Counted from the stretch's first letter, positions 3 to 16,624 are shown. The stretch: 64,000 bases of DNA from a virus (IMGVR_UViG_3300042691_008527:9888-73887), one strand, 5' to 3'. Numbers and translations are program-made. Notes: generated by a model not told the origin, from the letters alone.

Positions 3-71
3 CAGTACTCTTTTATGACAGCTGTAAAAGTTGAAAGCGATGTTTGGTACGTTACTGGAGACATTTCTTAA
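3..71 (+). CDS. 3' end of a tail fibre gene (truncated by window start)
   Basis: Frame from nt 3 reads QYSFMTAVKVESDVWYVTGDIS-stop, resembling the C-terminus of 3665..4999 (RWSSATLIKR...DAWVAIGDLSA); its TAA overlaps the next ATG (TAATG at 69-73). Confidence 0.7.
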   Translation, partial: QYSFMTAVKVESDVWYVTGDIS

Positions 72-985
72 TGCAATCAATTATAGGAATTAACTCTGCA
101 TCATTTAGAGTTCCACCTAAACCAATAGTTACAGGTGGAACTTTATATTCTGATTCTACATATTATTATAGAAAGTTTACTTCTTCAGGAACTTTAACAG
201 TATCAGAAGTGCCATTATCACCAATAGATATTATTCTAATTGGAGGTGGTGGTGGAAGCTCCTCTGGTGGTGGAGGTGGTGGTGGAATTTATGATCCAGT
301 AGCACTTGATTCCTATACTATTACTGTACCAATAGGATCTACAACTGTAACTATTGGTGCTGGAGGAGCTGTTCAGTCAAAGGGTGGAGATACTTCCTGC
401 CCAGTGTTAAGAAATGGTGGACTTCCATTACCTAATCCAGCTTATGGTGGTGGTCAAGGTGGTCTAAGGCTTGGCCCAAGACCATCTTCAACTAATATTG
501 GAGGTGGAGGTGGCGGAGGTAATGGGTATCTTGGTGGTTTTAGAGGTTATGGTCAAGGAGCTAGTGGAGCTTTTGGAGCAAGTGATTATGCCTATGGTGG
601 TGGTGGCGGCGGAGGATGGCTTTGTGCACAAGATGGTGGAACAACAACCACTGTAGATGGATATAATGTTCAAGGATCAAAAGGTGGTGATGGATGTAAT
701 GCATATGCAACTTGGGCATCTGTAACATCTTCTGGAGCAGATGGTGGATATTTTGCTGGAGGTGGATCTGGTGGAAATGCTGATTATAATTTATTTAAAG
801 CTCTTGCTGGAGGACTAGGTGGTGGTGGCGGTGCATCAAGTGGTAGAGGGAACTATTCTCAAGCTGGAATAGCTAATACTGGCGGTGGTGGCGGAGGAAT
901 TATATCTTGGCTAAATGGAGGTACTGGACAACCTGGTGGATCAGGAATTGTAATTATTAGATATCTTAAATCATTAGTTGACTAA
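71..985 (+). CDS. Glycine-rich (polyglycine) putative tail adhesin
   Basis: ATG at 71 coupled to upstream stop (track start 44 unlikely); TGGT..YYYRKFTSSGTL, ILIGGGGG, ANTGGGGGG, GGSGIVIIRY motifs. Confidence 0.75.
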   Translation: MQSIIGINSASFRVPPKPIVTGGTLYSDSTYYYRKFTSSGTLTVSEVPLSPIDIILIGGGGGSSSGGGGGGGIYDPVALDSYTITVPIGSTTVTIGAGGAVQSKGGDTSCPVLRNGGLPLPNPAYGGGQGGLRLGPRPSSTNIGGGGGGGNGYLGGFRGYGQGASGAFGASDYAYGGGGGGGWLCAQDGGTTTTVDGYNVQGSKGGDGCNAYATWASVTSSGADGGYFAGGGSGGNADYNLFKALAGGLGGGGGASSGRGNYSQAGIANTGGGGGGIISWLNGGTGQPGGSGIVIIRYLKSLVD

Positions 986-990
986 TAATA

Positions 991-999
991 TGTTATAAT
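991..999 (+). promoter_or_regulatory. Extended -10 promoter (TGT-TATAAT), leaderless start at 1006
   Basis: TATAAT 994-999, 6 nt before ATG, no SD. Confidence 0.65.
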
Positions 1000-1005
1000 A
1001 AGTTT

Positions 1006-1275
1006 ATGGCCAGTACAAAAACAGTTACAATTACATCTACAGCACCAGTAATCCTTACTCCAGCAGCAGTTCATTCTGGCGTTGATATTACTATACAAAA
1101 TCAAGGTAGTGCAGATATCTATGTTGGCACATCGTCAGTTACAAGTACAAGTTACGGAGTTAAACTTGCTAGCGGCTCTGGACTTGGACTTACTGTTCCA
1201 GCAAGAGATGAAGTTTATGCAATTACAGCATCTGGAACAGCTACTGTAACAGTCTTGACGATGGGGCTACCATAA
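1006..1275 (+). CDS. Small beta-rich putative virion protein
   Basis: 89 aa Thr/Ser/Val-rich ORF within fibre region. Confidence 0.55.
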   Translation: MASTKTVTITSTAPVILTPAAVHSGVDITIQNQGSADIYVGTSSVTSTSYGVKLASGSGLGLTVPARDEVYAITASGTATVTVLTMGLP

Positions 1276-1276
1276 A

Positions 1277-1879
1277 ATGGGTCAAATATACGGTCCTAGT
1301 GCACAACAAATTATTGCAACAATTGTTGATAGCGCCCCAGCAACACTAGATACACTTAAAGAAATTGCAGATTCTATAAATGATGATGCTAACTTTGCAG
1401 TTACTGTTACAAATGATTTAGCATTAAAAGCTCCATTAGCTTCGCCAACATTTACTGGATCTCCAAGTCTTACTGGTACAACATCAGTTCAACAGCTTTT
1501 AGAGAAAGCAACTGTGTCTGCAACAGCAGCAAACGGTACAATAAATTATGATTTGCTAACAAATGGATCCGTTACATACTACACATCTGATGCTGCTGGT
1601 AACTGGACATTGAATGTTCGTGGAAATAGCACAACAAAATTAAATGCCTTAATGACTACTAACCAATCATTAACAATAGCATTTTTAGTAACAAATGGAG
1701 TATCAGCAAAATATCAAACAGCTTTTCAGATTGATGGTGCACCTGTATCTCCAAAATGGCAAGGTGGAGCTGCCCCAACCTCTGGTAATGCAAGTGCTAT
1801 AGATGTTTATTCAATTACAATTATTAAAACAGCTGATACTACTTTTACTGTATTAGCGTCTCAAGTTAAATTTGCTTAG
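1277..1879 (+). CDS. Short tail fibre / adaptor protein
   Basis: APATLDTLKEIADSINDDANFA...KAPLASPTFTG phage fibre motif; beta-rich C-terminal domain ending ASQVKFA. Confidence 0.7.
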   Translation: MGQIYGPSAQQIIATIVDSAPATLDTLKEIADSINDDANFAVTVTNDLALKAPLASPTFTGSPSLTGTTSVQQLLEKATVSATAANGTINYDLLTNGSVTYYTSDAAGNWTLNVRGNSTTKLNALMTTNQSLTIAFLVTNGVSAKYQTAFQIDGAPVSPKWQGGAAPTSGNASAIDVYSITIIKTADTTFTVLASQVKFA

Positions 1880-1887
1880 GAGATTAT

Positions 1888-2739
1888 ATGCCATTACTAT
1901 CTACTCGTGGCGCAGCATCAGCTAGATCATTTGGATTTTCTGGATCACTTCCTGAAGTTTTAGTTGAATATCTCGTAGTAGCAGGTGGAGGTGGTGGTGG
2001 CACAAATATTGGAGGAGGTGGTGGTGCAGGGGGATATTTAACTAATTATGGATCATCAACACTTTCTTTATCTAGTGGTGTAGCGCACACAGTAACAGTG
2101 GGTGGAGGTGGAGCCTCTGTTAATCCACAAGGTGTACTTGGATCAAGTTCTGTTTTTGCATCTATAACGGCAACTGGTGGTGGAGGTGGTGGAACATGCT
2201 GCAGTGGAACTACGACTGGTGGAAATGGTGCTTCTGGTGGTGGAGGCAGTACAGCTGTTAGTGGTGGAACTGGAATTCCTGGTCAAGGAACTAATGGTGG
2301 AAATGGTGCATATGGTGGAGGAGGATTTATTGCAGCAGGTGGTGGTGGAGGAGCTGGGGTGGCTGGAACAGCAGCATCAAATGGCTCAAATGGTGGAAAA
2401 GGTGGAAATGGACTATCTTCAAGTATCACAGGAACTGCAGTAGTTCGTGCAGGCGGAGGAGGTGGTGGAGCAAATACAACATATTCATATCAGAGCGTTG
2501 GTCAGGGTGGTACAGGTGGTGGAGGAAATGCTGGAACACCAAATGCAGCTTCTGGTAGCGCTAATACTGGTGGTGGCGGAGGTGGTGGAGGAAATGCAAG
2601 TGGCGGTTCAGGAGGTTCTGGAATAGTTATTATTAGAGCTCCTAAAGCTGCAGTTTCAACAACTGGATCTCCAACATATACAACTTCTGGCGGAAGTCAT
2701 ATTTATCAGTTTTTAACAAGTGGTAGTATAACATTTTAA
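1888..2739 (+). CDS. Glycine-rich putative tail adhesin
   Basis: AGGAG SD; N-terminal MPLLSTRGAASARSFGF; VEYLVVAGGGGGG...ANTGGGGGG...GGSGIVIIR. Confidence 0.75.
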   Translation: MPLLSTRGAASARSFGFSGSLPEVLVEYLVVAGGGGGGTNIGGGGGAGGYLTNYGSSTLSLSSGVAHTVTVGGGGASVNPQGVLGSSSVFASITATGGGGGGTCCSGTTTGGNGASGGGGSTAVSGGTGIPGQGTNGGNGAYGGGGFIAAGGGGGAGVAGTAASNGSNGGKGGNGLSSSITGTAVVRAGGGGGGANTTYSYQSVGQGGTGGGGNAGTPNAASGSANTGGGGGGGGNASGGSGGSGIVIIRAPKAAVSTTGSPTYTTSGGSHIYQFLTSGSITF

Positions 2740-2746
2740 TTCTTTG

Positions 2747-2755
2747 TGCTATAAT
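2747..2755 (+). promoter_or_regulatory. Extended -10 promoter (TGC-TATAAT)
   Basis: Intergenic, upstream of GGAGG SD and ATG 2772. Confidence 0.65.
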
Positions 2756-2771
2756 TTAACTGGAGGAATCA

Positions 2772-3116
2772 ATGGCATTTCCAGGTACATATAATTTTAA
2801 CTACTATCGTGGCGATACATTTCAGTTTATCGTAAGACCAAAAGATGCAAATGGTGCTCAGTTTGATTTAACTGGTTATACCGCTGGATTTACTATTGCA
2901 AGTTCTCGTGGTGCAACACCAACATCATTTTATTCTGGTACAACAGTTATCAATACAGTCGATGATATCGTTACTTGTACTATCTCATCTACAGTTGGAA
3001 ATAACCTTACACCTGGAACAACATGGGTGTATGATGTTCAAATTACAGACGGCACTGTTGTATACACACTTTTGACTGGATCAATCACAGTAACAGACGA
3101 TGTAAGGGAGCCATAA
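2772..3116 (+). CDS. Ig-like virion protein (BppU-N/collar-like)
   Basis: YRGDTF...DLTGYTA...YDVQI...TLLTGSITV pattern of phage collar/baseplate Ig-like domains. Confidence 0.6.
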   Translation: MAFPGTYNFNYYRGDTFQFIVRPKDANGAQFDLTGYTAGFTIASSRGATPTSFYSGTTVINTVDDIVTCTISSTVGNNLTPGTTWVYDVQITDGTVVYTLLTGSITVTDDVREP

Positions 3117-3119
3117 ACA

Positions 3120-3656
3120 ATGGCTGAAATCGTTTTAAGCACCGTAGACTTAGATGTTTTTGGTGGCCCCACAAGTCTGGATGTATCTGTTGATTTCGGG
3201 GCTCAAGGAGTCCGTGGAAGCCGTTTCTGGGCAGGTGCCAATGGTCCCACGGTAGATCTAGTAGGCCAAGATGTAGAACTTTATGATGTATATCTTAATA
3301 CTAATACTGGAGTATTTTCACAATATATTTTACAGGTTGGTAGCCCAACATGGACACCATTATTAGATATTGATGTTCCACAATATTCTTTAATTTCTGC
3401 CACTACTTTTACTGCAGGGTCTGGATCGGTAACAATTCCAATTTCAAGCTTAACGTCAGATACTGGAACAACGGCATCAGACTATGTTATTCGATATAAT
3501 ATTTCTAATACAAACCCAGTAGCCTCTAGTTTTACATCAAGCATTGTTTCTACAAATATTGTAGTAACACTAAATGCTATTGAATATTCTGGTGGAAGCT
3601 GGTCTAATTTATCAGGAAGTAAGAATGTACACTTGTTCATTTCTTACATAGGATAG
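3120..3656 (+). CDS. Putative virion structural protein
   Basis: 178 aa beta-rich ORF in fibre operon. Confidence 0.5.
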   Translation: MAEIVLSTVDLDVFGGPTSLDVSVDFGAQGVRGSRFWAGANGPTVDLVGQDVELYDVYLNTNTGVFSQYILQVGSPTWTPLLDIDVPQYSLISATTFTAGSGSVTIPISSLTSDTGTTASDYVIRYNISNTNPVASSFTSSIVSTNIVVTLNAIEYSGGSWSNLSGSKNVHLFISYIG

Positions 3657-3664
3657 GAGCATAA

Positions 3665-4999
3665 ATGTCAGAGTCAGTAGGTACGCTTTATCCAACACAG
3701 ATACCATCGCTTTCTGATGCTGCTGATATTCAAGAAGCTCTTAGGCTTTATCATTATGGCGCATATCCAGGCACAGATCCTGGAGAATATAATCCTACAA
3801 ACTCAAACCCAGCAAGCCTTGTATCAAGCTCAATAGCTGGAACATTTAATAGCTTACAAGGTCAAATTACAACTCTTTCTGGCAGCTTAGGTATTCAGCC
3901 TAGTACCCTAACCACTAAGGGAGATATTCTTGCTGCAACTGCTGCATCTACTGTAACACGTTTTGGTGTGGGAGCAAATGGAACGGTACTAACTGCAAAT
4001 AGTGCAACTGCTACTGGTTTAGAATGGGCTACCCCAGTTGTAACAAACTCAAGCACCAACACGTTTACTAATAAAACAATGAATAATTTTTCTGTTACAG
4101 CAGGATCAAGCATTCTTGATACCAACACAAATGAGCTTTTGACTTTCCCATCTTTAGTGGCATCAGCAGTTAATAATATACAAATAAATAATTCTGCTAC
4201 TGGCGTAGCCCCAAGCCTTCAATCAATTGGAAATGATACAAATGTTGGCTTTAATATTATAACTAAGGGTACTGGATTAGCTCAAGTAAACGGTGTTCCA
4301 ATTGCAACAACTACAGACTCTCAAACTTTAACAAACAAAACTTTAACATCACCTTTGATAACTCTTAGTACAACATCTTCTACAACTGATGCTAGAATTT
4401 CTTGGGACACTACAAATAAAAAGATTCAAGTTGGTGATGGAACATCTGCAACAGATTTTGCGTCATCGACATTGAGAACAAATGCTGCAACGCTTTCATC
4501 TAATAACTATACTATAGTTCTTGCTGATAAAGATAAAATGGTTGAAATAGATAATGGTGCCACTGCATCTACTGTTACCATTCCAGCAAATGCAACAACT
4601 GCATTTTTACCAGGAACTCAAATTAATATTATTCAAACTGGAACTGCACAAGTAACTATATTGCCAGCATCTATAACAACTGCAACATTTTCTTCTGGAG
4701 GAGCTGCAGCAGCTACTACTTTTGTTATATCTACGCCAAATGCTAGCATTGCAGTTGGTCAAAAAGTTACGGGTACTGGTTTTGCAGATAATACATATGT
4801 TACAAATGTTGCTGGAACGACAATAACAGTAAGCCCAGCAATATCTTCACAGGTATCTGGAACAGTTACATTTAGTGTTGGAGTTATGGGAACTCCTGGA
4901 CTTAAACTTAGATCACGATGGTCTTCTGCAACTCTTATTAAGCGACCAACAGCAGCTGGTGTAGATGCATGGGTAGCAATTGGAGACCTTAGTGCATGA
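3665..4999 (+). CDS. Tail fibre protein
   Basis: TTKGDILAAT..VGANGTVLTANSATATGLEW and QTLTNKTLTSP fibre repeats; C-terminal GLKLRSRWSSATLIKR..W..IGDL domain. Confidence 0.75.
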   Translation: MSESVGTLYPTQIPSLSDAADIQEALRLYHYGAYPGTDPGEYNPTNSNPASLVSSSIAGTFNSLQGQITTLSGSLGIQPSTLTTKGDILAATAASTVTRFGVGANGTVLTANSATATGLEWATPVVTNSSTNTFTNKTMNNFSVTAGSSILDTNTNELLTFPSLVASAVNNIQINNSATGVAPSLQSIGNDTNVGFNIITKGTGLAQVNGVPIATTTDSQTLTNKTLTSPLITLSTTSSTTDARISWDTTNKKIQVGDGTSATDFASSTLRTNAATLSSNNYTIVLADKDKMVEIDNGATASTVTIPANATTAFLPGTQINIIQTGTAQVTILPASITTATFSSGGAAAATTFVISTPNASIAVGQKVTGTGFADNTYVTNVAGTTITVSPAISSQVSGTVTFSVGVMGTPGLKLRSRWSSATLIKRPTAAGVDAWVAIGDLSA

Positions 5000-6285
5000 A
5001 AATAGGCAACTCTGCTTCTTCATTTTTAAACGCCAATACAGATAGTTTTAATAGGGCTAATGATCCTACATCTCTTGGAATTTCTGATCGTGGAATTAGG
5101 TGGGGTGCTGTAAGAGATACCTGGCAAGTACTAGACAATGAAGCATATTCTGCAGCAAATCAAGCCTCATATGCTTTGGCAGCTGGTAGTGTCGGTATAA
5201 ATAATATTAATTCTAGAATTGTAATACCAGACGGTACTTCTGGAGCAGGTTTGGCATTTTGGGTAGAAGATGCAAATAACTGGTATGGTGTATTCCCATA
5301 TTATAATCAAACAGGAACTGCTGGATGCTTTGGTAGTGTCGTATATAATAATTCTGGTGCTTGTGGTGGATGTCCTACTACTAGTTATAGCTATCAAGTA
5401 TGCGATGTTTATAGTACAGACACTTCTAGCGGTTGCTGTAGCGGCATAACTAATGTTGCATCATCTACATATTGTGCTGGACCTTCCATTACTGGTCCTA
5501 CATCAACTGGTGTAATTACACCCGCTGGATGTTGCCCTGGGACTGCAACAACGTCTACATCATCTACTTGTACAACTGGTGGAACTGGGAATGTTTGTAA
5601 TACTGAAACCACATATGTAGAGTCTTGTTCTGGAAGCCAGCTATTTTGTTATCATAGTGGTGGTGGATGTACGCCGTCTGGATGTGGTGGTTGCTATGTC
5701 TATGATAGTGGACAAACAACATACTATACTTCTACATGTTCATACTCTGGACAATTTGTTAGTGGCAATGCCCCAGGTTGCGGTACATTCGGTGATCAGT
5801 GTGATTTTCCAGGTCAAGTATTTTCATTAACATGTTATGCTAGATATTGTTTTCAGCCAGTATATGAGCCAGTATATACTTATTATTATACTACGCTATA
5901 CTATACTGTATCTTGTTCTCAAACACAATATACTAGCCCAGGATATTCATATTGCTATAAGCCAAGGACAGAGAGTGGATATTATTGTAATCCCTATACG
6001 ACTACAATAACTACTACCTATGCTTATAAAGTAATAAAGATGGTTTCTGGTGTAGTTACAGAAATAGCTACTGTAACAGTACCTTCTGCTATACTAGGAT
6101 TAAGGGCCCAAACAAATGGTACCTCAATAAATATAACTGCATATTCTGATGTTAATCTTTCTAACATTATTGGACAGAGTAGCTATTCTGAGCTTTCTGC
6201 TACAAGAGGTGTTGGAGTTGGGGTACTATATGCTCCAACGCTGTATAATGGTTCATCAGTGTTAGATAATTTTGGAGTGGAGTAA
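4996..6285 (+). CDS. Putative fibre-tip adhesin: beta-sandwich with 24-Cys insertion
   Basis: ATGA overlap with fibre gene; DSFNRAN..GLAFWVEDANNWY..LDNFGVE lectin-like scaffold; all 24 Cys lie in nt 5326-5988. Confidence 0.65.
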   Translation: MKIGNSASSFLNANTDSFNRANDPTSLGISDRGIRWGAVRDTWQVLDNEAYSAANQASYALAAGSVGINNINSRIVIPDGTSGAGLAFWVEDANNWYGVFPYYNQTGTAGCFGSVVYNNSGACGGCPTTSYSYQVCDVYSTDTSSGCCSGITNVASSTYCAGPSITGPTSTGVITPAGCCPGTATTSTSSTCTTGGTGNVCNTETTYVESCSGSQLFCYHSGGGCTPSGCGGCYVYDSGQTTYYTSTCSYSGQFVSGNAPGCGTFGDQCDFPGQVFSLTCYARYCFQPVYEPVYTYYYTTLYYTVSCSQTQYTSPGYSYCYKPRTESGYYCNPYTTTITTTYAYKVIKMVSGVVTEIATVTVPSAILGLRAQTNGTSINITAYSDVNLSNIIGQSSYSELSATRGVGVGVLYAPTLYNGSSVLDNFGVE

Positions 6286-6286
6286 C

Positions 6287-6520
6287 ATGGAAAAAGGTGC
6301 AAGACCGTGGGATATTTTTAATAGAAATATTAAAAAGGTAGATGCAAGTATAGGTGATGAAAGAATGGAGATTTGTAATGCATGTCCATTTTTAATACAG
6401 GCGACTAAAACATGTACGAAATGCGGATGCTTTATGACTGCTAAAACAAAACTTCCGCATGCTTCATGTCCAGAAGGAAAATGGGGAGCTATCAAGATCT
6501 CTTTGAAAGAGGATATGTGA
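6287..6520 (+). CDS. Small six-Cys protein (DUF6171-like)
   Basis: ATG 6287 with GGAG SD; R..ICxxCP...CxxCGCFM..KT.L...SCP.GKW pattern. Confidence 0.65.
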   Translation: MEKGARPWDIFNRNIKKVDASIGDERMEICNACPFLIQATKTCTKCGCFMTAKTKLPHASCPEGKWGAIKISLKEDM

Positions 6521-6711
6521 TGAATAATATTGCTTTTGTAATTGATGAAGAAATTGTTTCTGTAGTTAACTGTGACGATCAACACGCTGCGGTTTTGTTA
6601 TCTGAGCCAATTATGGTTGATATCACGGATATGCCAAATGTTCATATAGGTTGGAAATATATTAATGGACAGCTTATCGCCCCAGAAATGCCAAGACCTG
6701 TAAATTCATAA
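6520..6711 (+). CDS. Putative tail fibre assembly chaperone (Tfa-like)
   Basis: ATG 6520 overlapping upstream TGA, GAGGA SD; IAFVIDEEIV...IGWKYINGQLIAP. Confidence 0.5.
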   Translation: MNNIAFVIDEEIVSVVNCDDQHAAVLLSEPIMVDITDMPNVHIGWKYINGQLIAPEMPRPVNS

Positions 6712-6721
6712 TTTTAAATAT

Positions 6722-6765: not shown

Positions 6766-6768
6766 ATA

Positions 6769-7347
6769 TTATGCAGGGAACTTTTTCATCCACTGCTTAG
6801 TTCTTGGAGTCATACCTTTCCAGGCAGTCCAATTTTTACCCCCAGCGCTCATATGATATGCAACCTGTGCATTAATGACAGGGTTCAGCAATTCGCTGGA
6901 AAAATTAATACCATATTTTTCTCTACGATCGGGACCAAGCATTCCAATCATATTGATTTGGAAAATACCAAAAGAACTGTCTCCAGTATTTGAATTTCCA
7001 TTAAATGCCAATGGTCTTCCATTAGATTCTTTTTTTGCTACAGCCCAAGCCTTCTTGAGACCTTCCCCACGAAAACCGACGGCATGTAAAAGTTTCTTCA
7101 ACTCTCTATCAGTCAAGCTGGTAGCATTCTGAAATTTATGAAGGTCGTTGAGATCTTTTTTGACCCTAACTAAGCTTTTAGGCTTAGAAACCAAAAAAAC
7201 CGCCTTAGCGGTCTTATCAGCAACTACCTTGGTTTCCTGTTTAATAAAATTATTCTCTGAGCTAAGGGCATTAGCCTTATTAGCCAAGATAGCAACTGCA
7301 AAAACAGTAGCCAAGACTCCAATCAGAAATTTTTGATCTTGCTTCAT
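6769..7347 (-). CDS. Secreted or membrane-anchored lytic transglycosylase (SLT, lysozyme-like fold)
   Basis: ATG at 7347 with AGGAGG SD; N-terminal hydrophobic segment; AVAKKESNG (catalytic Glu), GIFQIN, NPVINA, WTAW motifs. Confidence 0.8.
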   Translation of the reverse strand: MKQDQKFLIGVLATVFAVAILANKANALSSENNFIKQETKVVADKTAKAVFLVSKPKSLVRVKKDLNDLHKFQNATSLTDRELKKLLHAVGFRGEGLKKAWAVAKKESNGRPLAFNGNSNTGDSSFGIFQINMIGMLGPDRREKYGINFSSELLNPVINAQVAYHMSAGGKNWTAWKGMTPRTKQWMKKFPA

Positions 7348-7395
7348 ACTTTTTCCTCCTAGAAACAAAAAACACCTTTTCGGGTGTTAAGTATT

Positions 7396-7488: not shown

Positions 7489-8976
7489 ATGGCATCAGGC
7501 TTTACACCTACATATCTTATCCCTTATCCACTGCCTACAGATCCAGTCAATGTGGCTTCTGATATGGAAGAAATGGCTGATAGGTTAGAAACTTTATTCA
7601 CAAATACCGTTCAGCTATCTGCTGCCAATATATTTACAAATACAAATATTTTTAGTGTTAACTCTTCCTCTGCCGCAGTTAGAATTACACAGGTAGGATC
7701 AGGAAATGCCTTCCTCGTTGAAGATGATGCCAATCCAGACACTAGTGCTTTCGTTATTACAAATGCTGGAGATGTCGGTATTGGAAAGTTATCTCCACAA
7801 GAAAAAGTTGATGTAATAGGAAATATTAAACTAAGCGGTAATCTTATTTTTGAGGGTACTGATGATACTTATGAATTATCATTTGCATACACAGATCCGA
7901 CAGCAGATAGAACTATTACTCTGCCAGATGTAACAGGAACAGTTATAACAAATGGTAATTTGACAGATATTACTACAGTTGGTACTGTGATTGCTGGTTT
8001 GTGGAATGCATCAACTATTGGTGCAAATTATGGTGGCACTGGTATAAGTACATATTTAACTGGAGATATTTTATATTCTAGCTCAACCAATGTTTTGTCA
8101 AAGCTGGCTATTGGAACATCTGGACAGGTGTTAAGAGTTTCTTCTGGCGGTATACCAGAATGGGCAACAATTTCTGTATCTGCTGCAACACCCACCGTAG
8201 CTGGAACAGTATTTGGATATACAAATGCAGTTGGTGGAAATATTGGTCTTGGATATAGCGCTCTTGGTAGTCAGTCAGCATCAAATGATGAACATATAGC
8301 AATTGGATATGAGGCTCTTTCATCAATAACAAATACCGCATTTGCAGATGTTATGGTTGGATATAGGTCTGGATATGGTCTAACTACTGGCGATTATAAT
8401 ATCGGCATCGGAGGATTTAATTTTTGGGGAACAACTACTGGAAGCTATAATATAGCAATCGGTTACGAAACACTTCCAGCTTATGCAGTGGGAGGTTTAA
8501 CATCTAGTCATAACATATTTATTGGGCATACATCTGGATATAATGCTGCATCAACTATTGTTGACAATGTTTCTGTAGGTAACGGAAATTTGTATGCTTA
8601 TCAGGGAGCATATACGGTAGCTATTGGTAATGGAGCTCTTGCAGCAAGCACAACGGGGAATGAAAATACTGCAGTAGGATTTTATGCTGGAGGAGCGATA
8701 ACAACTGGTGCACAAAATACTCTTCTAGGATCACGAGCTGCCAATGATGGTGGTGGACCAAATATAGAGTTAACAACTGGATCTAACAATATTATTATTG
8801 GATATGAGTCTGCCCCTACCTCTTCATCTGTATCAAACGAAATAACTATCGGAAATGCATCTAATAATAGGTTTAGAGTTCCAGGCCTTGGTATTGATTG
8901 GACACCAGCAACAGTTCCTAGTGGATCTGGTGGAGGAGCTTCTCTTTCACAAGTTTTTATGTTGATGGGTGCATAG
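7489..8976 (+). CDS. Tail fibre with beta-roll repeats
   Basis: N-terminal TPTYLIPYP..D anchor; TADRTITLPD.TGT motif; repeated N(I/T)A(I/V)G(Y/F) units; ends VFMLMGA. Confidence 0.75.
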   Translation: MASGFTPTYLIPYPLPTDPVNVASDMEEMADRLETLFTNTVQLSAANIFTNTNIFSVNSSSAAVRITQVGSGNAFLVEDDANPDTSAFVITNAGDVGIGKLSPQEKVDVIGNIKLSGNLIFEGTDDTYELSFAYTDPTADRTITLPDVTGTVITNGNLTDITTVGTVIAGLWNASTIGANYGGTGISTYLTGDILYSSSTNVLSKLAIGTSGQVLRVSSGGIPEWATISVSAATPTVAGTVFGYTNAVGGNIGLGYSALGSQSASNDEHIAIGYEALSSITNTAFADVMVGYRSGYGLTTGDYNIGIGGFNFWGTTTGSYNIAIGYETLPAYAVGGLTSSHNIFIGHTSGYNAASTIVDNVSVGNGNLYAYQGAYTVAIGNGALAASTTGNENTAVGFYAGGAITTGAQNTLLGSRAANDGGGPNIELTTGSNNIIIGYESAPTSSSVSNEITIGNASNNRFRVPGLGIDWTPATVPSGSGGGASLSQVFMLMGA

Positions 8977-9000: not shown

Positions 9001-9240
9001 ATGTCTGAAGAAATTTTAACAAAGATTGTAGTTGATTGTTCTACTGGAGAACAAAAGGTGGTTCCTCTTACCCCAGCAGAAATTGCACAGAGGGATCAAG
9101 ATGCAGCTGCATTTGCAGAAGCAGAAGCTGCACGAAAAGCAGAGGAAGATAGAATTGCTGCTCTTAAAGAGTCAGCCAAAAAGAAACTAATTGCGGGAAC
9201 AAAGCTTACTGCTGAAGAAGCAGAAGTATTGGTAATTTAA
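9001..9240 (+). CDS. Putative fibre assembly chaperone
   Basis: AGGAGG SD; KIVVDCSTGEQ..PLT..EIAQR followed by a charged helix. Confidence 0.55.
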   Translation: MSEEILTKIVVDCSTGEQKVVPLTPAEIAQRDQDAAAFAEAEAARKAEEDRIAALKESAKKKLIAGTKLTAEEAEVLVI

Positions 9241-9250
9241 GGAGAATATA

Positions 9251-9634
9251 ATGGCACACTTTGCAGAAGTAGACGAAAATAATATTGTTACTCGTGTACT
9301 AGTTGTTGGAGATGATCAAGAGCATCGTGGACATGACTTTCTTGCTAATGACCTTGGTCTTGGCGGTACATGGATTAAAACTTCATACAATACATTAGCT
9401 GGACAACATACTAAGGGTGGAACACCACTTAGATATAATTATGCTGGTATTGGTTATACTTGGGATCCAGGGTTTGGTGAAGATGGAGCATTTATTCCAC
9501 CAAAGCCTTTTGATTCTTGGCTACTTGATAATAATACTGCAACATGGAATCCACCAGTTGCTTATCCAAATGATGGAAAGCTTTATAGTTGGAATGAAAA
9601 AGACGGTACTTGGGATGAGGTTGTAGCAGAGTAA
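9251..9634 (+). CDS. Putative chaperone/partner of Gly-rich adhesins
   Basis: MAHFAEVDENNIV..WIKTSYN..RYNYAGIGYTWD..FIPPKPF.SW..Y.W.E pattern. Confidence 0.6.
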   Translation: MAHFAEVDENNIVTRVLVVGDDQEHRGHDFLANDLGLGGTWIKTSYNTLAGQHTKGGTPLRYNYAGIGYTWDPGFGEDGAFIPPKPFDSWLLDNNTATWNPPVAYPNDGKLYSWNEKDGTWDEVVAE

Positions 9635-9996
9635 TGGCAACAGCATACAAGGTATTAGGACAAACTGGATCATCTGGAAATTTTGGTAATGGTGCACAAA
9701 CATTAACAGCTAATACAAATACAAATGTTTACACAGTTCCAGCAGCAACAGAAACAGTTGTTTCTACTATCACGGTATGCAATCAGGCATCTACTGCAGC
9801 TACTTTTAGAATTGCTGTAAGACCAGATGGTGCTGCTATTGCAACGCAACACTATCTTGCGTATGATACCCCAATTGCTGCAAACGATACTGTTGGCTTA
9901 ACACTTGGTATTACAATAAATGCTGCTGATATTATTACAGTTTATGCTTCTGCAGCAACAATGTCATTCTCAGTCTTCGGCTCTGAAACAACGTAA
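9634..9996 (+). CDS. Small beta-sandwich virion adaptor
   Basis: MATAYKVLGQ..YTVPA..STITVCN..SFSVFGSE; TAATG coupling. Confidence 0.6.
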   Translation: MATAYKVLGQTGSSGNFGNGAQTLTANTNTNVYTVPAATETVVSTITVCNQASTAATFRIAVRPDGAAIATQHYLAYDTPIAANDTVGLTLGITINAADIITVYASAATMSFSVFGSETT

Positions 9997-10008
9997 GGGG
10001 GTAGGCTA

Positions 10009-10596
10009 ATGTCAGTTAGCAGATTTTCCCAATCATCTTTACAAAATGGTTTTGAAAAATTTAATACCATTTGGGATGGAAAAACTGCTGTTGGCTCAAT
10101 GGAAGCCATCAGTTCTGTTACTTTGTCTAGTACTCTTGGATCTGTTAGCTTTAATAATATACCGCAAACATATCAACACTTAGAGCTTAGGACAATGGCT
10201 CTTGGAAGTAGCTCAAATCAGGATATTTTAATTAGATTTGGGTCTTCATCAACCATAGACTCAGGATCTAATTATTCTTGGCACGAACTTCGTGGAACTG
10301 GAACAAATCCTGTATCATCTACTGCAACTCCAAATGCATCTGCATTATATGTTTCATCTAATGCTATAGATTCAGCATTTCCAGATATTTCTATACTTAG
10401 TATTGTAGACTATTCAAATATAAATAAATATAAAACTCTCAGGGTTTTACGTGGTGGAGATAGAAATGGTAGCGGTACCATGGGTATCTTCAGTGGTAAT
10501 TGGAGAAGCTTTAATGCAATAGATAGTCTATTAATATATGTATCTGGTGGAAGCTTTAATGCAAATTCAACCTTTTCTTTATATGGGATTAAATAA
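10009..10596 (+). CDS. Cassette 1 subunit A (IPQTY beta domain with N-terminal peptide)
   Basis: F.NIPQTY.HL..R ... STFSLYGIK; paralog of 13339..13932. Confidence 0.7.
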   Translation: MSVSRFSQSSLQNGFEKFNTIWDGKTAVGSMEAISSVTLSSTLGSVSFNNIPQTYQHLELRTMALGSSSNQDILIRFGSSSTIDSGSNYSWHELRGTGTNPVSSTATPNASALYVSSNAIDSAFPDISILSIVDYSNINKYKTLRVLRGGDRNGSGTMGIFSGNWRSFNAIDSLLIYVSGGSFNANSTFSLYGIK

Positions 10597-11966
10597 TGCC
10601 TACATATACACCAATACAATCTATCACAACATCTTCAGTATCAACTGAGGTAAACTTTTCTAACATTCCTCAAACTTATCAAGATTTAGTTATTGTTGCT
10701 TCAATGAAAGGAACTACTGGCACTAACTCTGGAGTTGGTCTTCAGTTTAATGGAGACACCTCATCTCTATATTCGTTTACATATGCTCAGGGAACTGGAT
10801 CAGCAGCAGAAACTGCTAGATTGGCAAACTCATCTAGTATAAATGTTGGTCCAGGAAATGCTGGAATACCAACTGCAAGTAATACTTTTGGTCCATCTGT
10901 TTTTAGTATTCAAAACTATTCGAATACAACAACAAATAAAGCAGTTATGCATAGAGGAAACAATTCAGCCAATATGGTTGGTTTATTGACTGGACTATGG
11001 AGGTCAACCTCTGCAATAACAAGTATAAGATTATTCATTTATGCTGGAAATTTTGATTCTGGATGTACTTTTGATCTTTATGGAATATCGCCAGTTGCAG
11101 CACAAGCAACAAAAGCATCTGGTGGCACAGAGATATATTATGATTCAACATATGCTTACCACGTATTTAAGGGATCTGGAATTTTTACACCAAACCAATC
11201 ATTAAGTGCTGATATTTTAGTAATAGCTGGTGGAGGTGGAGGAGCTGGAGGAGGTGGAGGAGCTGGAGGACTTCTTGAATGGCAGTCTTGGCCCCTTACG
11301 GCACAAAGTTATCCTGTTGTGGTCGGTGCTGGAGGTCCTGGAGGAACAGATACCTTGCAGGGAGGAAATGGTCAAGACTCTCAATTTGGAACATTAGTTT
11401 TAGCAGGAACATATCCTCGTGGAGGTGGAGGTGGTGGTGCTATAACCACAAATCTTAGTGGTATTACTGGAGGTTCTGGAGGTGGAGGTGGGCCAGCAGA
11501 TCTAAGTGCTGGTTCTGGAGGAAGTGGTTTAGCTCCTGGACAAGGCAATTCTGGCGGTACGGCATTTCAAAGACAAGCAGGAAATGGCGGTGGCGGCGGT
11601 GGAGGTGGTTGTGGAAACCAACCTAGTGGAAGTGCTGGTGGTGTAGGAACTGGTGGAACTGCAACATCTGGTGCTGCTGGAAATGGAGGTAGAGGAGCAT
11701 TATATTACTCTTCATGGGGAGCCGTTACTAATACTGGACATAACGTAGGTGGAACATATTATTATTGTGGTGGTGGAGGCGGTGGATCAAACCTTGCAAC
11801 TCGTGGTACTGGTGGTCTTGGCGGTGGAGGAGATGGATATAAGCAAACAGGTCCAGTGCTTGGATCAAGTGGTATGACAAATACAGGAGGCGGTGGTGGC
11901 GCAGGATGGAACACTACTGGATATAATGGTGGTTCTGGTCTTGTAATTGTGAGGTATCCAAAATGA
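10596..11966 (+). CDS. Cassette 1 subunit B: IPQTY domain plus Gly-rich adhesin domain
   Basis: IPQTYQDL..IQNYSNTTTNK..LYGI then LVIAGGGGG..GGSGLVIVRY. Confidence 0.7.
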   Translation: MPTYTPIQSITTSSVSTEVNFSNIPQTYQDLVIVASMKGTTGTNSGVGLQFNGDTSSLYSFTYAQGTGSAAETARLANSSSINVGPGNAGIPTASNTFGPSVFSIQNYSNTTTNKAVMHRGNNSANMVGLLTGLWRSTSAITSIRLFIYAGNFDSGCTFDLYGISPVAAQATKASGGTEIYYDSTYAYHVFKGSGIFTPNQSLSADILVIAGGGGGAGGGGGAGGLLEWQSWPLTAQSYPVVVGAGGPGGTDTLQGGNGQDSQFGTLVLAGTYPRGGGGGGAITTNLSGITGGSGGGGGPADLSAGSGGSGLAPGQGNSGGTAFQRQAGNGGGGGGGGCGNQPSGSAGGVGTGGTATSGAAGNGGRGALYYSSWGAVTNTGHNVGGTYYYCGGGGGGSNLATRGTGGLGGGGDGYKQTGPVLGSSGMTNTGGGGGAGWNTTGYNGGSGLVIVRYPK

Positions 11967-13303
11967 GTATAGAAACAATGACAAAGCTTTCTTCATATAC
12001 GGTTGGTGTTGGAGGCATATCAGCTATTGATTTTATAAATATACCACAAGAATATACTGATCTTAAAATTGTTATAAGTGGAAGAACTGACGAATCAAGT
12101 GATCGCTCTGTTCCGTATGTTTATTTTAATAGTGATACTTCTGCAACAACAAACTATTCATATAGAAGGCTTTATGGTATAGCATCAATAGCTACAAGTT
12201 CTGACAATGGAGCAGGAGTTATTGGTGGATATATTTCTGGTGCAACTGCTACGGCAGGAGTATTTGGAAATTTAGAATTTTATATTCCTAATTATAGTCA
12301 ATATATGCAAAAAAGTATTACATCAGACGGAGTATCTGAAACTAACGCTTCTCCAGCAGGAATAGCCATAACAGCATCTTTATGGAATCAGGTAGCGCCA
12401 ATAACATCTATAAAAATATATGCTGGACTAAACACATCTATAAAGTTTGTTCAACATTCTACTGCTACATTATATGGAGTAAAAAATGCTCGTGCTACTG
12501 CAGGTAATTCAATAAAAGCAACAGGTGGATCAATTAGTTTTGATGGTACATATGTTTATCATACTTTTAATAATAGTGGTAGTTTTATACCTACAGCTGG
12601 ACTAACTATTGATTATTTAGTTGTTGCTGGCGGTGGGGGTGGAGCAAATGGCGGTGGTGGTGCAGGTGGTTTTAGAACATCTGCTGGAACTTCTGGTGCT
12701 AACTCTGCTTCAGAGTCAAAACTATCTTTATTTGCAAATACCCCATATACAGTTACAATTGGCGCAGGTGGAGCACCAGTTGCTTGGGCTAATAGCGGAA
12801 ATGATGGAAACAATTCTGCTTTTAGCACTATAAGTTCTTTAGGTGGTGGAGGTGGTGGTGGTCCAAATGCAGCTGGTAGAAATGGTGGTTCTGGCGGTGG
12901 AGCTGGAAATATTGCAGCGGGTGGTGCACCAGCTGCTGGAAATGGAACTGCTAATCAAGGCTTAGGCGGTGGTGGTGCAGTAAGTAATGGAAATAATCAA
13001 AGCGGAGGAGGTGGCGGCGGCGGAGCAAGTGTTGCTGGAGCTAGTTTTGGCTCTGGTGGTGCTGGTGGAGCTGGACTTGCTTCCACTATCAGTGGACGTT
13101 CTATAGTATATGCTGGTGGTGGCGGTGCAGCAAATATTGCTGGTGCTGGTGGTTCTGGTGGAGGTGGTGCTGGTGGTAGTGGTACTAATGGCGCTGGAAT
13201 AAATGGAACTGCTAATACTGGTGGTGGGGGTGGAGGCTCTATTTTTGGTACGCATGGTGCGGGTGGATCTGGAGTAGTAATTATTCGTTACTTAGCACAA
13301 TGA
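11963..13303 (+). CDS. Cassette 1 subunit C: IPQ domain plus Gly-rich adhesin domain
   Basis: VGVGG..IPQEYTDL..EFYIPNY..LYGV then YLVVAGGGGG..GGSGVVIIRY. Confidence 0.7.
   Translation: MSIETMTKLSSYTVGVGGISAIDFINIPQEYTDLKIVISGRTDESSDRSVPYVYFNSDTSATTNYSYRRLYGIASIATSSDNGAGVIGGYISGATATAGVFGNLEFYIPNYSQYMQKSITSDGVSETNASPAGIAITASLWNQVAPITSIKIYAGLNTSIKFVQHSTATLYGVKNARATAGNSIKATGGSISFDGTYVYHTFNNSGSFIPTAGLTIDYLVVAGGGGGANGGGGAGGFRTSAGTSGANSASESKLSLFANTPYTVTIGAGGAPVAWANSGNDGNNSAFSTISSLGGGGGGGPNAAGRNGGSGGGAGNIAAGGAPAAGNGTANQGLGGGGAVSNGNNQSGGGGGGGASVAGASFGSGGAGGAGLASTISGRSIVYAGGGGAANIAGAGGSGGGGAGGSGTNGAGINGTANTGGGGGGSIFGTHGAGGSGVVIIRYLAQ
13204..13236 (+). repeat. 33-nt exact direct repeat, copy 1
   Basis: TGGAACTGCTAATACTGGTGGTGGGGGTGGAGG, identical to 16519-16551. 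Confidence 0.9.
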
Positions 13304-13309
13304 TATAAT
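13301..13309 (+). promoter_or_regulatory. Extended -10 promoter (TGA-TATAAT) for cassette 2
   Basis: Overlaps stop codon of 11963..13303; upstream of AGGAG SD and GTG 13339. Confidence 0.6.
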
Positions 13310-13338
13310 AGACATGAAATACTTACTAGGAGAAAAAA

Positions 13339-13932
13339 GTGGCATTTAGAAATCTAAGCACATCAAGTATCTTCACTGGTGTTAAAACTAGTAAGCTATG
13401 GGATCAAACCACTTTTCCAGGTACTTTTGAAAGTATACAGACTGTTTATTTAGCTAGTGCTCAAAGTACTATTTCTTTTACTAATATACCCCAGACTTAT
13501 TCACATTTACAAATTAGAGTACTATCTCGTGACAATAGAGCAGCTACTGCTAATAGTGTTTTTTATCGTATTAATGGAGATACAGGTTCTAATTATTCCT
13601 ACCATATTCTTGCTGGAGATGGTTCAAATACTAGTGCTGGTGCAGCAAGTTCCACTACTTTTACTTATGGAATGATACAAACATCAGCCAGCACAACTTC
13701 TAATATATTTACCGCTGGTATTATAGATATACTTGATTATTCAAACACAAATAAAAATACTACAATTAGAACTCTTCAGGGTTATGATTCTAATGGTAGC
13801 GGTCATATAAGGTTAAATTCTGGTCTTTGGATGAATACTGCTGCTGTAACCTCATTTTTAATTTATGCTGATGCTAGCGCTAATTTTGTAGCAAATTCAC
13901 ATTTTGCGTTATATGGAATTAGGAGCGCATAA
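13339..13932 (+). CDS. Cassette 2 subunit A
   Basis: FTNIPQTYSHLQIR..DYSNTNKNTTIRTLQGYDSNGSG..FALYGI. Confidence 0.7.
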   Translation: MAFRNLSTSSIFTGVKTSKLWDQTTFPGTFESIQTVYLASAQSTISFTNIPQTYSHLQIRVLSRDNRAATANSVFYRINGDTGSNYSYHILAGDGSNTSAGAASSTTFTYGMIQTSASTTSNIFTAGIIDILDYSNTNKNTTIRTLQGYDSNGSGHIRLNSGLWMNTAAVTSFLIYADASANFVANSHFALYGIRSA

Positions 13933-15254
13933 TGCCAGCAGGAGAAACATATATAAAACTTAGGTCTACTACGCTGAGTAGCACTGCTTCATCTGTGGTT
14001 TTTTCTAACATCCCACAAACATTTACAGACCTTATCATAGTATTCAATGGAACTTTGAGTTCTGGAACAAGCGTTTATGGATTGCGATACAATTCAGATA
14101 GTTCAGGCCTTTATTCTTGGACTTCGCTTCGTGGTGATGGATCTGCCGCAAGTAGTGCAAGAGACACCAACTCTTCTCGAATTTTATGTGGATGGATTGG
14201 AACAAGTCAAGTAACTGAAATAATACAGATTCAAAATTATTCAAATAGCACAACGAATAAAACAAACATTACCCGCAACAATTCAACTGTTGCAAGCACT
14301 TATGTTTCCGCAAACGTTGGTCTATGGAGAAACACTGCTGCAATTACGTCTGTAACTTTATTGCCAGATAGCAGCACGTTTGCCTCTGGCTCTACCTTTA
14401 CGCTCTACGGCATAGCAGCATCTGCTTCACCACAAGCATCTGGTGGAACTATTACAACTGATGGAACATATTGGATACATACATTTACAAGTTCTGGAGT
14501 TTTTACCCCAATAAATGGTTTACAGGATGTTGACTATATGGTTCTTGCTGGTGGAGGCGGAGGAGCAGCAGGTGGTGGTGGTGCGGGGGGTTTACGCTCT
14601 ACTGTAACAGCTTCTGGAAGAGGGTCTTCAGTTGAGTCAAGAATAAATTTAAGCCCTGGATCTTATGTTGTAACTGTAGGGGCTGGCGGTAACGGTAACA
14701 ATTCTTATAGCGGTGGTGCTGCTACTAAAGCAGGTGACAATGGTAGTGATTCAGTATTTGCAAGCATTACATCTTTAGGCGGCGGCGGTGGTGGTTCTGC
14801 TGGAAATAATTCTTTCCCATATGTAGCAAAGAACGGTGGTTGTGGTGGTGGCGCCTCTTATTCATCAGGAACTGCAAATAGAGGTTTAGGAACAGCTGGA
14901 CAAGGATATGATGGTGGTGCAGATACTATTGATGCAGCACCTTACCCTGGTCCTGGCGGTGGTGGTACTGGTCAAGATGGTCAAAGTCCACCAAACTCAA
15001 GCACTGCTGGAGCTGGTGGTAATGGAACCGCAGTAGCTATAAGTGGTTCATCTGTAACTTATGGTGGCGGTGGCGGAGGCGGCGTTTATGGAGGTGGCAG
15101 CGGTGGTGCTGGAGGATCAGGTGGTGGAGGAAGTTTTAGTAATCCAGGAGGAAATGGAACAGTTAATCTTGGCGGAGGTGGAGGAGGTACAGTAAATAAT
15201 GCTGTTGGAGGTAATGGTGGAAGCGGTATTGTAATTGTGAGGTATCCACGATAA
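13932..15254 (+). CDS. Cassette 2 subunit B with Gly-rich domain
   Basis: IPQTFTDL..IQNYSNSTTNK..GSTFTLYGI then Gly-rich domain ending GGSGIVIVRY. Confidence 0.7.
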   Translation: MPAGETYIKLRSTTLSSTASSVVFSNIPQTFTDLIIVFNGTLSSGTSVYGLRYNSDSSGLYSWTSLRGDGSAASSARDTNSSRILCGWIGTSQVTEIIQIQNYSNSTTNKTNITRNNSTVASTYVSANVGLWRNTAAITSVTLLPDSSTFASGSTFTLYGIAASASPQASGGTITTDGTYWIHTFTSSGVFTPINGLQDVDYMVLAGGGGGAAGGGGAGGLRSTVTASGRGSSVESRINLSPGSYVVTVGAGGNGNNSYSGGAATKAGDNGSDSVFASITSLGGGGGGSAGNNSFPYVAKNGGCGGGASYSSGTANRGLGTAGQGYDGGADTIDAAPYPGPGGGGTGQDGQSPPNSSTAGAGGNGTAVAISGSSVTYGGGGGGGVYGGGSGGAGGSGGGGSFSNPGGNGTVNLGGGGGGTVNNAVGGNGGSGIVIVRYPR

Positions 15255-16624
15255 TGGCTAAAACATATAAAGCATTACAGACTGTTGTTGTAGGAGCAGG
15301 AGGTGCTGCAAGCATTAATTTTACAAACATTCCACAGAACTATGATGATCTTATTATAAAACATAGTCTTAGATCTAATCATGCACAAATTTATGAATAT
15401 TGTGGGGTAAGGTTTAATAGTAACAGTTCATCAATTTATAGTCTTAAAAATCTTCGTGGTAATGGCTCTACCGTAATTAGTCAAACTCTTACCAATCAGA
15501 CAAGATTTGAGTTTGAAATGGCGGAAGGAAATACAGCAACATCAAACACATTTAGTAATGGTGAGTTTTATATCCCAAATTATAGAGGAAGTGCAAATAA
15601 GTCTGTAAGTTCTGAATCGGTCCAAGAAACAAATGCCACCCTTGCTTATTCTGCTATGGATGCTGGAATCTGGGCAAGCACTGCAGCAATTACAGATATT
15701 CAAATTTTTCCTACTGTTGGAACTTTATGGAATCAATATTCTATGGCTACTCTCTATGGCGTAGGTGGTGCTCGTGCAACTGGTGGTACTATAACTGCTG
15801 ATGGATTATATACATATCATACTTTTACATCAAGTGGAGCTTTTATACCTCTTGAAAATATAGAAGGAATTGATTATCTTGTTGTTGCAGGTGGTGGAGG
15901 CGGAGCTGGATGGTACGGTGGCGGAGGTGGAGCTGGAGGTCTTAGATCTAGTAGAGTAAGAACTGGTGGTGGGGGATCAGTTCAAAATCAAATTAATGCT
16001 ATTGCTGGAACAACATATTCGGTAACTGTTGGTTCTGGAGGTGCATCTCAAACAAATGGAAATAACTCTATATTTGCTAATGTAATGTCTACTGGAGGAG
16101 GACGTGGTGGAAGCTATCAGTCTAATGCTCCTGGTGGTAACGGAGGTTCTGGAGGAGGTGGTGGTGCTGGTAATGCTGTAGGTGGTGTTTGGCTTCCAGG
16201 AGGAACTGGAACTGCAAATGAAGGATATGGCGGTGGTACTGGACATGCATCTAATGCTGGTGCTCCAGGAGGCGGTGGTGCAGGTGCTGCTGCTAGTAAT
16301 GCACCAGCTTCTCCAAATGGAACTGCTACAGATGGTGGCATAGGTGTTGAGCTTGCTGTTTTTGCTAATCCAACAGGAACTGGCTCTAATAATTATTATG
16401 CAGGTGGTGGAGGTGGTGGCTCTACTGTTGGCGGTGGTAATGGAGTATATGCTGGAGTTGGCGGTCTTGGTGGTGGAGGCGCTGGCTCTCTTGTTGCAAA
16501 CAGTGGAACTGGTGTGGCTGGAACTGCTAATACTGGTGGTGGGGGTGGAGGATCTGCCTACAATGTAAACTCTGGTGGAGCTGGTGGATCTGGTATAGTA
16601 ATTGTTAGATATCCAAACACTTGA
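15254..16624 (+). CDS. Cassette 2 subunit C with Gly-rich domain
   Basis: VGAGG..IPQNYDDL..EFYIPNY..LYGV then Gly-rich domain ending GGSGIVIVRY. Confidence 0.7.
   Translation: MAKTYKALQTVVVGAGGAASINFTNIPQNYDDLIIKHSLRSNHAQIYEYCGVRFNSNSSSIYSLKNLRGNGSTVISQTLTNQTRFEFEMAEGNTATSNTFSNGEFYIPNYRGSANKSVSSESVQETNATLAYSAMDAGIWASTAAITDIQIFPTVGTLWNQYSMATLYGVGGARATGGTITADGLYTYHTFTSSGAFIPLENIEGIDYLVVAGGGGGAGWYGGGGGAGGLRSSRVRTGGGGSVQNQINAIAGTTYSVTVGSGGASQTNGNNSIFANVMSTGGGRGGSYQSNAPGGNGGSGGGGGAGNAVGGVWLPGGTGTANEGYGGGTGHASNAGAPGGGGAGAAASNAPASPNGTATDGGIGVELAVFANPTGTGSNNYYAGGGGGGSTVGGGNGVYAGVGGLGGGGAGSLVANSGTGVAGTANTGGGGGGSAYNVNSGGAGGSGIVIVRYPNT
16519..16551 (+). repeat. 33-nt exact direct repeat, copy 2
   Basis: Identical to 13204-13236. 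Confidence 0.9.

Follow-up and report, generated by a model that had tools for sequence, protein, structure and literature searches.

How heads that are encoded apart from their fibres come to be mounted on a phage is the question raised by the stretch IMGVR_UViG_3300042691_008527:9888-73887, which covers bases 9888-73887 of a 73.9-kb phage contig (64,000 nucleotides (nt), hereafter the window; positions are counted from its first base unless the genome is named). Near its start, three fibre genes, named here A, D and H, are each followed closely by a gene whose product begins with a short peptide and continues into a different kind of domain, the payload. A preliminary description, made from the sequence of the window, had read positions 3-16624 as a plug-and-socket adhesin system. 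Among ~230 related viral contigs we found that the type of the fibre's C-terminal domain, the socket, predicts the N-terminal peptide of the next gene. We consider it fairly probable that the stretch encodes a branched receptor-binding apparatus, in which adaptor fibres carry separately encoded heads docked via these address peptides. The system is probably a hitherto undescribed variant of a known way to hang interchangeable receptor-binding heads on a phage fibre.

The first junction lies at the very beginning of the window. Fibre A (281 amino acids (aa); genome 9113-9958, L001:9113-9958, L numbers being our labels for contigs and genomes; 3' end at 1-71, on the + strand like all other genes of the block unless stated) matches tail-fibre PHROGs. 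It consists of a collagen-like Gly-X-Y shaft and a C-terminal XD-type (gp10-like) domain of ~105 aa, and its C-terminus matches phrog_21978/8780. The fibre ends in WYVTGDIS, its last codon at 66-68 and the stop codon at 69-71, and the ATG of tip B (71-985, 304 aa) lies at 71, in a TAATG overlap; in tip B the address peptide MQSIIGINSAS (71-103) precedes a Gly_rich_2 domain. At the second junction, fibre H (3665-4999, 444 aa) closes with an XD-type domain (~4460-4999) that ends in WVAIGDLSA. Tip I (4996-6285, 429 aa), with its ATG at 4996 in an ATGA overlap, starts with MKIGNSASS (4996-5022) ahead of a DSFNR-type beta-sandwich with a Cys-rich insertion. The third junction is of another kind. 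Fibre D (1277-1879, 200 aa) opens with a segment of tail-fibre type and closes with a D-type domain (~1454-1879, phrog_5906) ending in ASQVKFA at 1879, and tip E (1888-2739, 283 aa) starts at 1888 with the D-class address peptide MPLLSTRGAASARSFGF (1888-1938), again followed by Gly_rich_2.

The ends of fibres A and H are homologous (pairwise E 8e-5), and one iterated profile recovers both. In the six frames of the 73.9-kb genome the motif IG.?NSAS occurs twice and W...GD[IL]S twice (W...GD[ILV][SA] likewise), only at junctions 1 and 2, and the peptide pattern fits 2/87 N-termini of open reading frames (ORFs) of at least 80 aa, those of the same two junctions. The earlier proposal that similar IG..(S)AS peptides stand behind one socket type on two payloads holds. 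Because fibres A and H share a domain type and both peptides contain NSAS, they represent one code and not two. The first three junctions are not a product of chance.

Two sets of viral contigs were compared, 160 retrieved with the two fibres (socket-ascertained) and 77 retrieved with protein T alone (payload-ascertained); the latter set was fetched because the first had been chosen by socket. After XD ends, the next gene starts MPILG(T/V/I)IASS, MPIIGxxDSAK, MSPILGIIASS or in a similar way, in ~35 distinct junctions and nearly always with the TAATG overlap. The payloads behind this peptide include the QT domain (~180 aa), Gly_rich_2 (280-830 aa), FN3-like, DxFNR-type sandwich, lectin-like and other domains. 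The QT domain, which is jelly-roll-like and takes its label from the window proteins Q and T, has no Pfam or PHROG family, and its Atlas clusters are large and virus-only. Members of the same payload families that lie further down the gene arrays start straight at the first strand of the domain, without a peptide.

In the socket-ascertained set, a strict peptide pattern was found in 29/33 payload genes directly after an XD end vs 1/52 elsewhere (Fisher p = 3e-17), and in the payload-ascertained set in 14/27 distinct genes after an XD end vs 4/209 elsewhere (p = 4e-12); the contigs are often related phages whose counts are not independent, and these p-values overstate the support. The remaining 13 of the 27 genes carry clear variants of the motif (MIIPGVIASS, MPLFPGIFASA, MSLILGILAQS and others), and two of the four exceptions with the pattern away from an XD end lie at a contig edge. 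A measure free of the pattern, the median N-terminal extension ahead of the QT domain, gave 16 aa after XD ends, 23 aa after D-type ends and 1 aa otherwise. The preliminary description had proposed a comparison of this kind, and its expectation that the C-terminal domain type predicts the next N-terminal peptide whatever the payload was borne out in both sets.

In the tree of socket domains, 32/34 rows of the WYVxGDI clade retain the peptide, and over the whole tree the payload label needs at least 20 changes. What is informative in the comparison is that payloads change again and again while the peptide ahead of them does not. The address peptide is a module separate from the payload: in five contigs a Pro/Thr linker stands between the two, and Atlas structural alignments of T begin at residues 4-25, mostly 11-25. 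In a sister clade ending WLVMGDIS (support 98) the following sequence is another one, and MSRLALTPTNVP, the start of a further fibre segment, is found in 17/20 rows. In several contigs of this kind (L027, L034, L036, L009 and others, at ~4400-5300) the ORF of ~85 aa that starts with this segment abuts or overlaps a 216-aa ORF with the next socket; the two could be one frameshift-split fibre gene or two small genes.

Fibre D represents the second code. Genes that follow D-type ends (LASQxKFA) start 5-20 nt on, and their peptides take two forms. One reads M(S)P(I/L)(L/V)...S.(S/A)(F/Y)G(F/W/L), as in MPLLSTRGAASARSFGF of the window and in MSPILGARGGLSASAYGF and MPYIGLSGVSPAKGFGW elsewhere; the other, MSPLFR..S.IGIFL, is joined to its payload by a Pro/Thr linker. 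When the peptides were scored as XD-type, D-type or other, XD sockets gave 54/0/24 and D sockets 0/9/7, with no cross-pairing. Both socket types occur together with their cognate peptides in the genome studied here and in L006 and L007. The payloads behind both sockets of L006 are QT domains, hence the peptide follows the socket and not the payload. As the XD and D peptide classes share the opening residues M-(S)-P-I/L-L-G, full orthogonality of the two is not established.

The fold of the sockets was approached by modelling. The fibre A end was modelled with AlphaFold2 (AF2) from 42 homologues, with a predicted local distance difference test (pLDDT) score of 89, and the model matches phage attachment domains only (Z 8.2-12.7), the next unrelated match standing at Z 3.0. 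The top score is that of the Pa223 capsid spike, in its C-terminal domain (Z 12.7), and the set further comprises KP1 baseplate proteins (Z 10.2), CBA120 TSP4 residues ~80-180 (Z 9.4-9.7), T4 gp10 residues 49-149 (Z 8.4, root-mean-square deviation 2.8, 92 aa aligned), T4 gp9 (Z 8.2) and the Solidus tailspike. By this model the fibre A end is predicted to adopt the T4gp10-like/XD fold (gp10 D2/D3). The D-type end gave a weaker AF2 model (pLDDT 72), which matches the same ten entries at Z 4.6-7.2 before a drop to 2.2 (Foldseek E 0.013-1), and its top match is also the Pa223 domain (Z 7.2). The D-type and XD-type profiles show no relation in hhalign, therefore any kinship between them is one of fold. 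Searches of the XD socket, D socket and QT profiles against PDB sequences returned nothing significant, one of them with no match below E 0.19, and the fibres have no matching Pfam family.

From these data we propose the following mechanism. Fibres A, D and H are headless, each ending in a beta domain of ~105-140 aa with a predicted T4 gp10/gp9 / CBA120 XD fold, and the coupled downstream gene begins with a short address peptide. The XD peptide comprises ~10 residues of the form hhG-hh-(A/D)-S-(S/A), and the D peptide ~18-23 residues ending (S/A)x(F/Y)G(F/W/L). The peptide would dock non-covalently on the terminal domain of the fibre and thereby hang its payload, be it Gly_rich_2, a QT domain or a lectin-like domain with a Cys-rich insert, on that fibre. 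Since socket and peptide remain together and only what follows them is replaced, the heads would be swappable by recombination just behind the peptide.

The junction DNA was compared between contigs with differing payloads. Identity is 75-99% over the last 300 nt of the fibre and 63-97% over the first 30 nt of the tip, and beyond that it falls to a background of ~50-60%. A homology that stops ~30 nt into the tip gene, as at a recombination boundary, could also mean that the junction is only a linker for module exchange and expression, made up of a ribosome-binding site, reinitiation signals and a left homology arm, in which the peptide has no binding role. The expression signals are indeed there. 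Stop and start overlap in 32/32 junctions (TAATG/TGATG in 29/32, ATGA in 3/32), and a GGAGA formed by the socket's conserved Gly-Asp codons lies 6-9 nt ahead of the tip start in 29/32, where it serves as the Shine-Dalgarno sequence of the tip gene. We nevertheless regard such a linker as an unlikely explanation. The conserved peptide residues P, I, L, G and S are each written with 3-5 synonymous codons, which would not be expected of a purely nucleotide-level signal and indicates that selection acts on the protein. Peptide variants persist at ~30-40% socket identity, where the DNA is no longer alignable. Moreover, a mere linker would not account for two unrelated socket families that keep two peptides without exchanging them, nor for a socket fold that is the fold of known docking domains.

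The same overlaps recall a programmed -1 frameshift that would fuse fibre and tip and turn the peptide into an interdomain linker. At most junctions the tip is read in the -1 frame with respect to the fibre, and covalently fused relatives exist, but a canonical X XXY YYZ heptamer is present in the last 15 codons of 1/32 junctions only, and each tip starts at a codon of its own, behind a Shine-Dalgarno sequence at a suitable distance. Other junctions are spaced by +4 to +20 nt and fall in other frames, and the fused relatives lack the peptide motif after GDI. We consider such a frameshift extremely improbable; from the overlaps, the spacing of GGAGA and the near absence of the slippery heptamer it follows that the fibre/tip pair is translationally coupled and not frameshift-fused.

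Besides the relatedness of the contigs, several observations weigh against docking through address peptides. A quarter to a third of XD ends precede something else, and neither socket type resembles gp10, any Pfam family or a solved structure by sequence. In ~20 contigs the same domain is internal, and ...YGDI-YE leads through a Pro/Thr or Pro/Val linker into the payload without a peptide motif. Because such internal, covalently continued versions exist, the domain can also be simply a structural or trimerising unit, and judging from the fused genes a head may alternatively be attached covalently, the domain being not exclusively a docking end. The fibre block, finally, is placed apart from this genome's tail module, and in structure the socket is closest to a capsid spike. 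As a separate observation, the fused forms include relatives of fibre H (L021, L045, L048, L062, L081 and others) whose payloads are Cys-rich or PASTA-like (CGxMPNVVG...).

The last of the opposing points raises the possibility that fibres and heads decorate the capsid or neck, with the same docking logic and with heads that serve surface adhesion rather than the binding of an infection receptor. The Pa223 capsid spike domain tops the matches of both socket models, and the block stands ahead of the portal and other head genes and of a putative ribonucleotide reductase gene; ~20 kb separate it from the genes for the tape measure and the tail tip. Against this location, A, D and P match tail-fibre PHROG families, and the gp10, gp9, TSP4 and KP1 baseplate matches are tail parts. 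Cultured relatives speak for the tail as well. The consensus socket domain alone, used as a query, matched 222 Gordonia phage records, and in Nubi, Reyja and Zirinka (L239-L241), the phages inspected, the tail operon's last 'minor tail protein' has an XD domain at its C-terminus, 44-46% identical to the contig consensus; lysin A follows ~1.1 kb further downstream in Nubi. PHROG names and the Gordonia arrangement thus point to the tail, and we hold a capsid or neck position to be quite improbable.

In these Gordonia phages the socket (ending LWLVTGDLA in Reyja) is followed by an overlapping or adjacent gene of ~199 aa (Reyja gp28/gp29, Nubi gp36/gp37, Zirinka gp28/gp29), annotated as hypothetical. 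The arrangement is that of the window, with the same C-terminal XD-type domain and a further gene directly behind it. Unlike in the window, the downstream protein starts with another motif, MVLPAPRFRT in both Reyja and Nubi, whose N-termini were translated, and it shows no relation to the QT profile; the records propose no docking. A preprint on the cryo-electron microscopy of a mycobacteriophage baseplate contains nothing about gp10-like docking or glycine-rich heads.

A further possibility is that the downstream proteins are assembly factors like T4 gp38 or Tfa, whose peptide would bind the fibre end transiently and which would be absent from the virion. Their genes stand directly behind a fibre gene, as Tfa genes do, and D, S and U weakly match the 'tail fiber assembly' family phrog_863 (E 1e-8 to 7e-4). 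The payloads are large (177-830 aa), varied, repeatedly replaced and arranged in paralog arrays, which suits receptor-binding heads better, and no Tfa or gp38 Pfam family was found among the window proteins. We therefore think a role as assembly factors very improbable. The stretch contains six Gly_rich_2 (PF21722) proteins, all above the Pfam gathering cut-off of 24.3 bits (B 41.1, E 70.1, R 43.2, S 53.3, U 75.5, V 40.4). In tips B and E this family is the sole Pfam match, next to a PHROG match to phrog_2295, of unknown function.

Docked heads of the kind proposed here have precedents. The XD/T4gp10-like fold provides docking sites for other fibres in T4, G7C, CBA120, K1-5 and Klebsiella phages, and peptides of 7-29 aa dock on T4gp10-like domains in K1-5, G7C, CBA120 and Klebsiella phages (PMC6872550). 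In K1-5, gp37 has a T4gp10-like domain and binds two tailspikes via N-terminal peptides of 7 and 11 residues; the docking peptides differ between phage groups, while G7C, CBA120 and many Klebsiella phages share the logic (PMC6872550). The domain-peptide pair is genetically required in KP32/K11/KP34 (PMC13352976). The window follows the pattern of K1-5/SP6, G7C (gp66/gp63.1), CBA120 (TSP2/TSP4) and KP32/K11/KP34, with a gp10-like first protein and a second protein that is variable behind a conserved peptide, and an adaptor without its own head is also found in K1-5 gp37 and some G7C-like gp66 orthologues. Since fold and logic are common to both, these adapter/anchor-branch systems are the closest known ones.

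The differences from K1-5, G7C, CBA120 and KP32 are nonetheless considerable. The domain here stands at the very C-terminal end of a fibre that is short and in part collagen-like, whereas in those phages it is N-proximal, before a tailspike body; by sequence, neither the sockets nor the peptides resemble gp10 or the known peptides. As heads the window system has non-enzymatic modules (Gly_rich_2, QT, lectin-like and further ones) and not depolymerases, and the head gene is always the overlapping next gene. Two socket families, unrelated in sequence and probably related in fold, occur with their own peptides in one genome. Unlike the enterobacterial and Klebsiella systems, moreover, the present one belongs to a siphovirus of an uncultured, possibly actinobacterial host.

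The preliminary description had named T-even gp37/gp38 as the precedent, which now appears more distant than a gp10-like branching domain with an N-terminal peptide as in K1-5, G7C, CBA120 and KP32. As in T2, T6 and S16, a separate head gene follows the fibre gene, and gp38 attaches by its N-terminal part. This part of gp38 is a folded domain and is not known to be a peptide of ~10 aa. The socket fold of the window is gp10/gp9-like, unlike the gp37 tip, and Pfam and PHROG gave no match to gp37 or gp38 families among the window fibres and tips. The head of S16 gp38 is a glycine-rich polyproline-II bundle (10.1101/2023.11.25.568672), which the Gly-rich payloads here recall, with no family relation found.

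If docking is correct, receptor-binding heads and their mounting would be identified in hundreds of uncultured freshwater phages by a simple rule with three elements: a gp10-like domain at the C-terminus, a next gene that overlaps, and an address peptide of 10-20 aa. The rule would also cover more than 200 sequenced Gordonia phages, in whose inspected records the downstream gene is annotated as hypothetical. The principle of a branching domain and a conserved peptide, so far known in detail from K1-5, G7C, CBA120 and Klebsiella podoviruses, would extend past enterobacterial tailspike phages to siphoviruses with non-enzymatic heads, and payload replacement exactly behind the peptide would be natural evidence that the interface is a unit of head exchange.

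Of the three or more orthogonal codes suggested at the outset, two socket/peptide classes, XD and D, are supported, and the third peptide class is without a fixed partner. The third class had been read from a fourth junction. There, fibre/spike M (7489-8976, 495 aa, with tailspike-like repeats) ends in VFMLMGA, and MATAYKVLGQ at 9634, MSVSRFSQSS at 10009 and MAFRNLSTSS at 13339 (GTG start) follow; the peptides quoted for all four junctions were located where they had been placed. The class itself, which forms the N-termini of Q and T, is real and recurrent, with the pattern MA(I/V)SR(L/F)S.SS...(L/V)WD, an extension of ~20-30 aa and at least 23 distinct examples. Two genes (9001-9240 and 9251-9634) separate fibre M from the later genes of this junction. 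The gene ahead of a class-3 gene may encode a P-like protein, a further QT protein, or a relative of the window's 127-aa or 79-aa protein. As the upstream neighbour varies, no socket can be assigned to the class-3 peptide. The VFMLMGA end was considered as a socket and rejected. No socket-type C-terminus was detected in fibre M, its end has three weak relatives only, none with a conserved downstream peptide, and nothing in it is comparable to the ends of A or D.

The class-3 peptides of the window open two cassettes that are tandem paralogs. In cassette 1 (10009-13303), Q (195 aa) carries MSVSRFSQSS... ahead of its QT domain, and in R (456 aa) and S (446 aa) the QT domain lacks an N-terminal extension and is followed by Gly_rich_2. 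In cassette 2 (13339-16624), T (197 aa) carries MAFRNLSTSS... and then QT, and U (440 aa) and V (456 aa) combine a QT domain with Gly_rich_2. Positions 9001-9996 encode three small proteins that are conserved, N (79 aa), O (127 aa, phrog_7759) and P (120 aa, MATAYKVLGQ, phrog_1276/11338), and relatives of each directly precede QT genes in other contigs. QT genes stand in arrays of ~3 paralogs (window 10009-16624; L010, L024, L065 and L006), in which only the first bears the address peptide. Such triplets would fit a heterotrimeric knob with a single docking peptide. A general peptide-addressed assembly code in many uncultured, probably actinobacterial, siphoviruses and their cultured relatives, in which at least three classes of address peptide would direct exchangeable heads to particular gp10-like or jelly-roll sockets, with heterotrimeric single-peptide QT knobs, is possible but in our view doubtful. 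Were it true, branched architecture and head repertoire would be readable from sequence alone.

The genome around the fibre block is that of a long-tailed phage. The window encodes a portal 46% identical to Streptomyces phage portals, a 2091-aa tape measure protein and a minor tail protein of 1488 aa, and the replication genes lie behind these; from the portal, tape measure and minor tail protein we conclude that the phage is long-tailed, with a tail that is probably non-contractile. Neither megablast with the first 20 kb nor tblastn with fibre H gave a match among cultured phages. The fibre-like gene block starts ~1.2 kb ahead of the window. Between it and the head genes, an unusual place inside a structural region, lies a 676-aa ORF (17073-19103), a candidate that we take, judging by eye, to be a class II-like ribonucleotide reductase. 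It is followed, ahead of the portal, by a 1292-aa protein (19130-23008) with no Pfam or PHROG match.

Within the block, several small proteins stand upstream of the fibres. Protein C (1006-1275, 89 aa, beta-rich) precedes fibre D, and proteins F (114 aa, phrog_1084) and G (178 aa), at 2772-3656, precede fibre H. A comparison of a 138-aa protein, C, F and P as possible paralogs gave BLAST E values of 0.03-0.3. Residues ~8-70 of fibre H (a DAADIQEALRLYHYG-type stretch) are kept in dozens of contigs whose fibre bodies are otherwise different, in the manner of an anchor; the N-termini of fibres A and D are unlike that of H. The gp10-like domain of fibre H also contains an insertion of ~60 aa (residues ~351-415, window ~4715-4910) that is found in no other aligned member. 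In the middle of the fibre block, the - strand encodes at 6769-7368 a protein of 199 aa whose N-terminus is hydrophobic and which contains an SLT_3 lysozyme-like domain (PF18896, E 6e-16).

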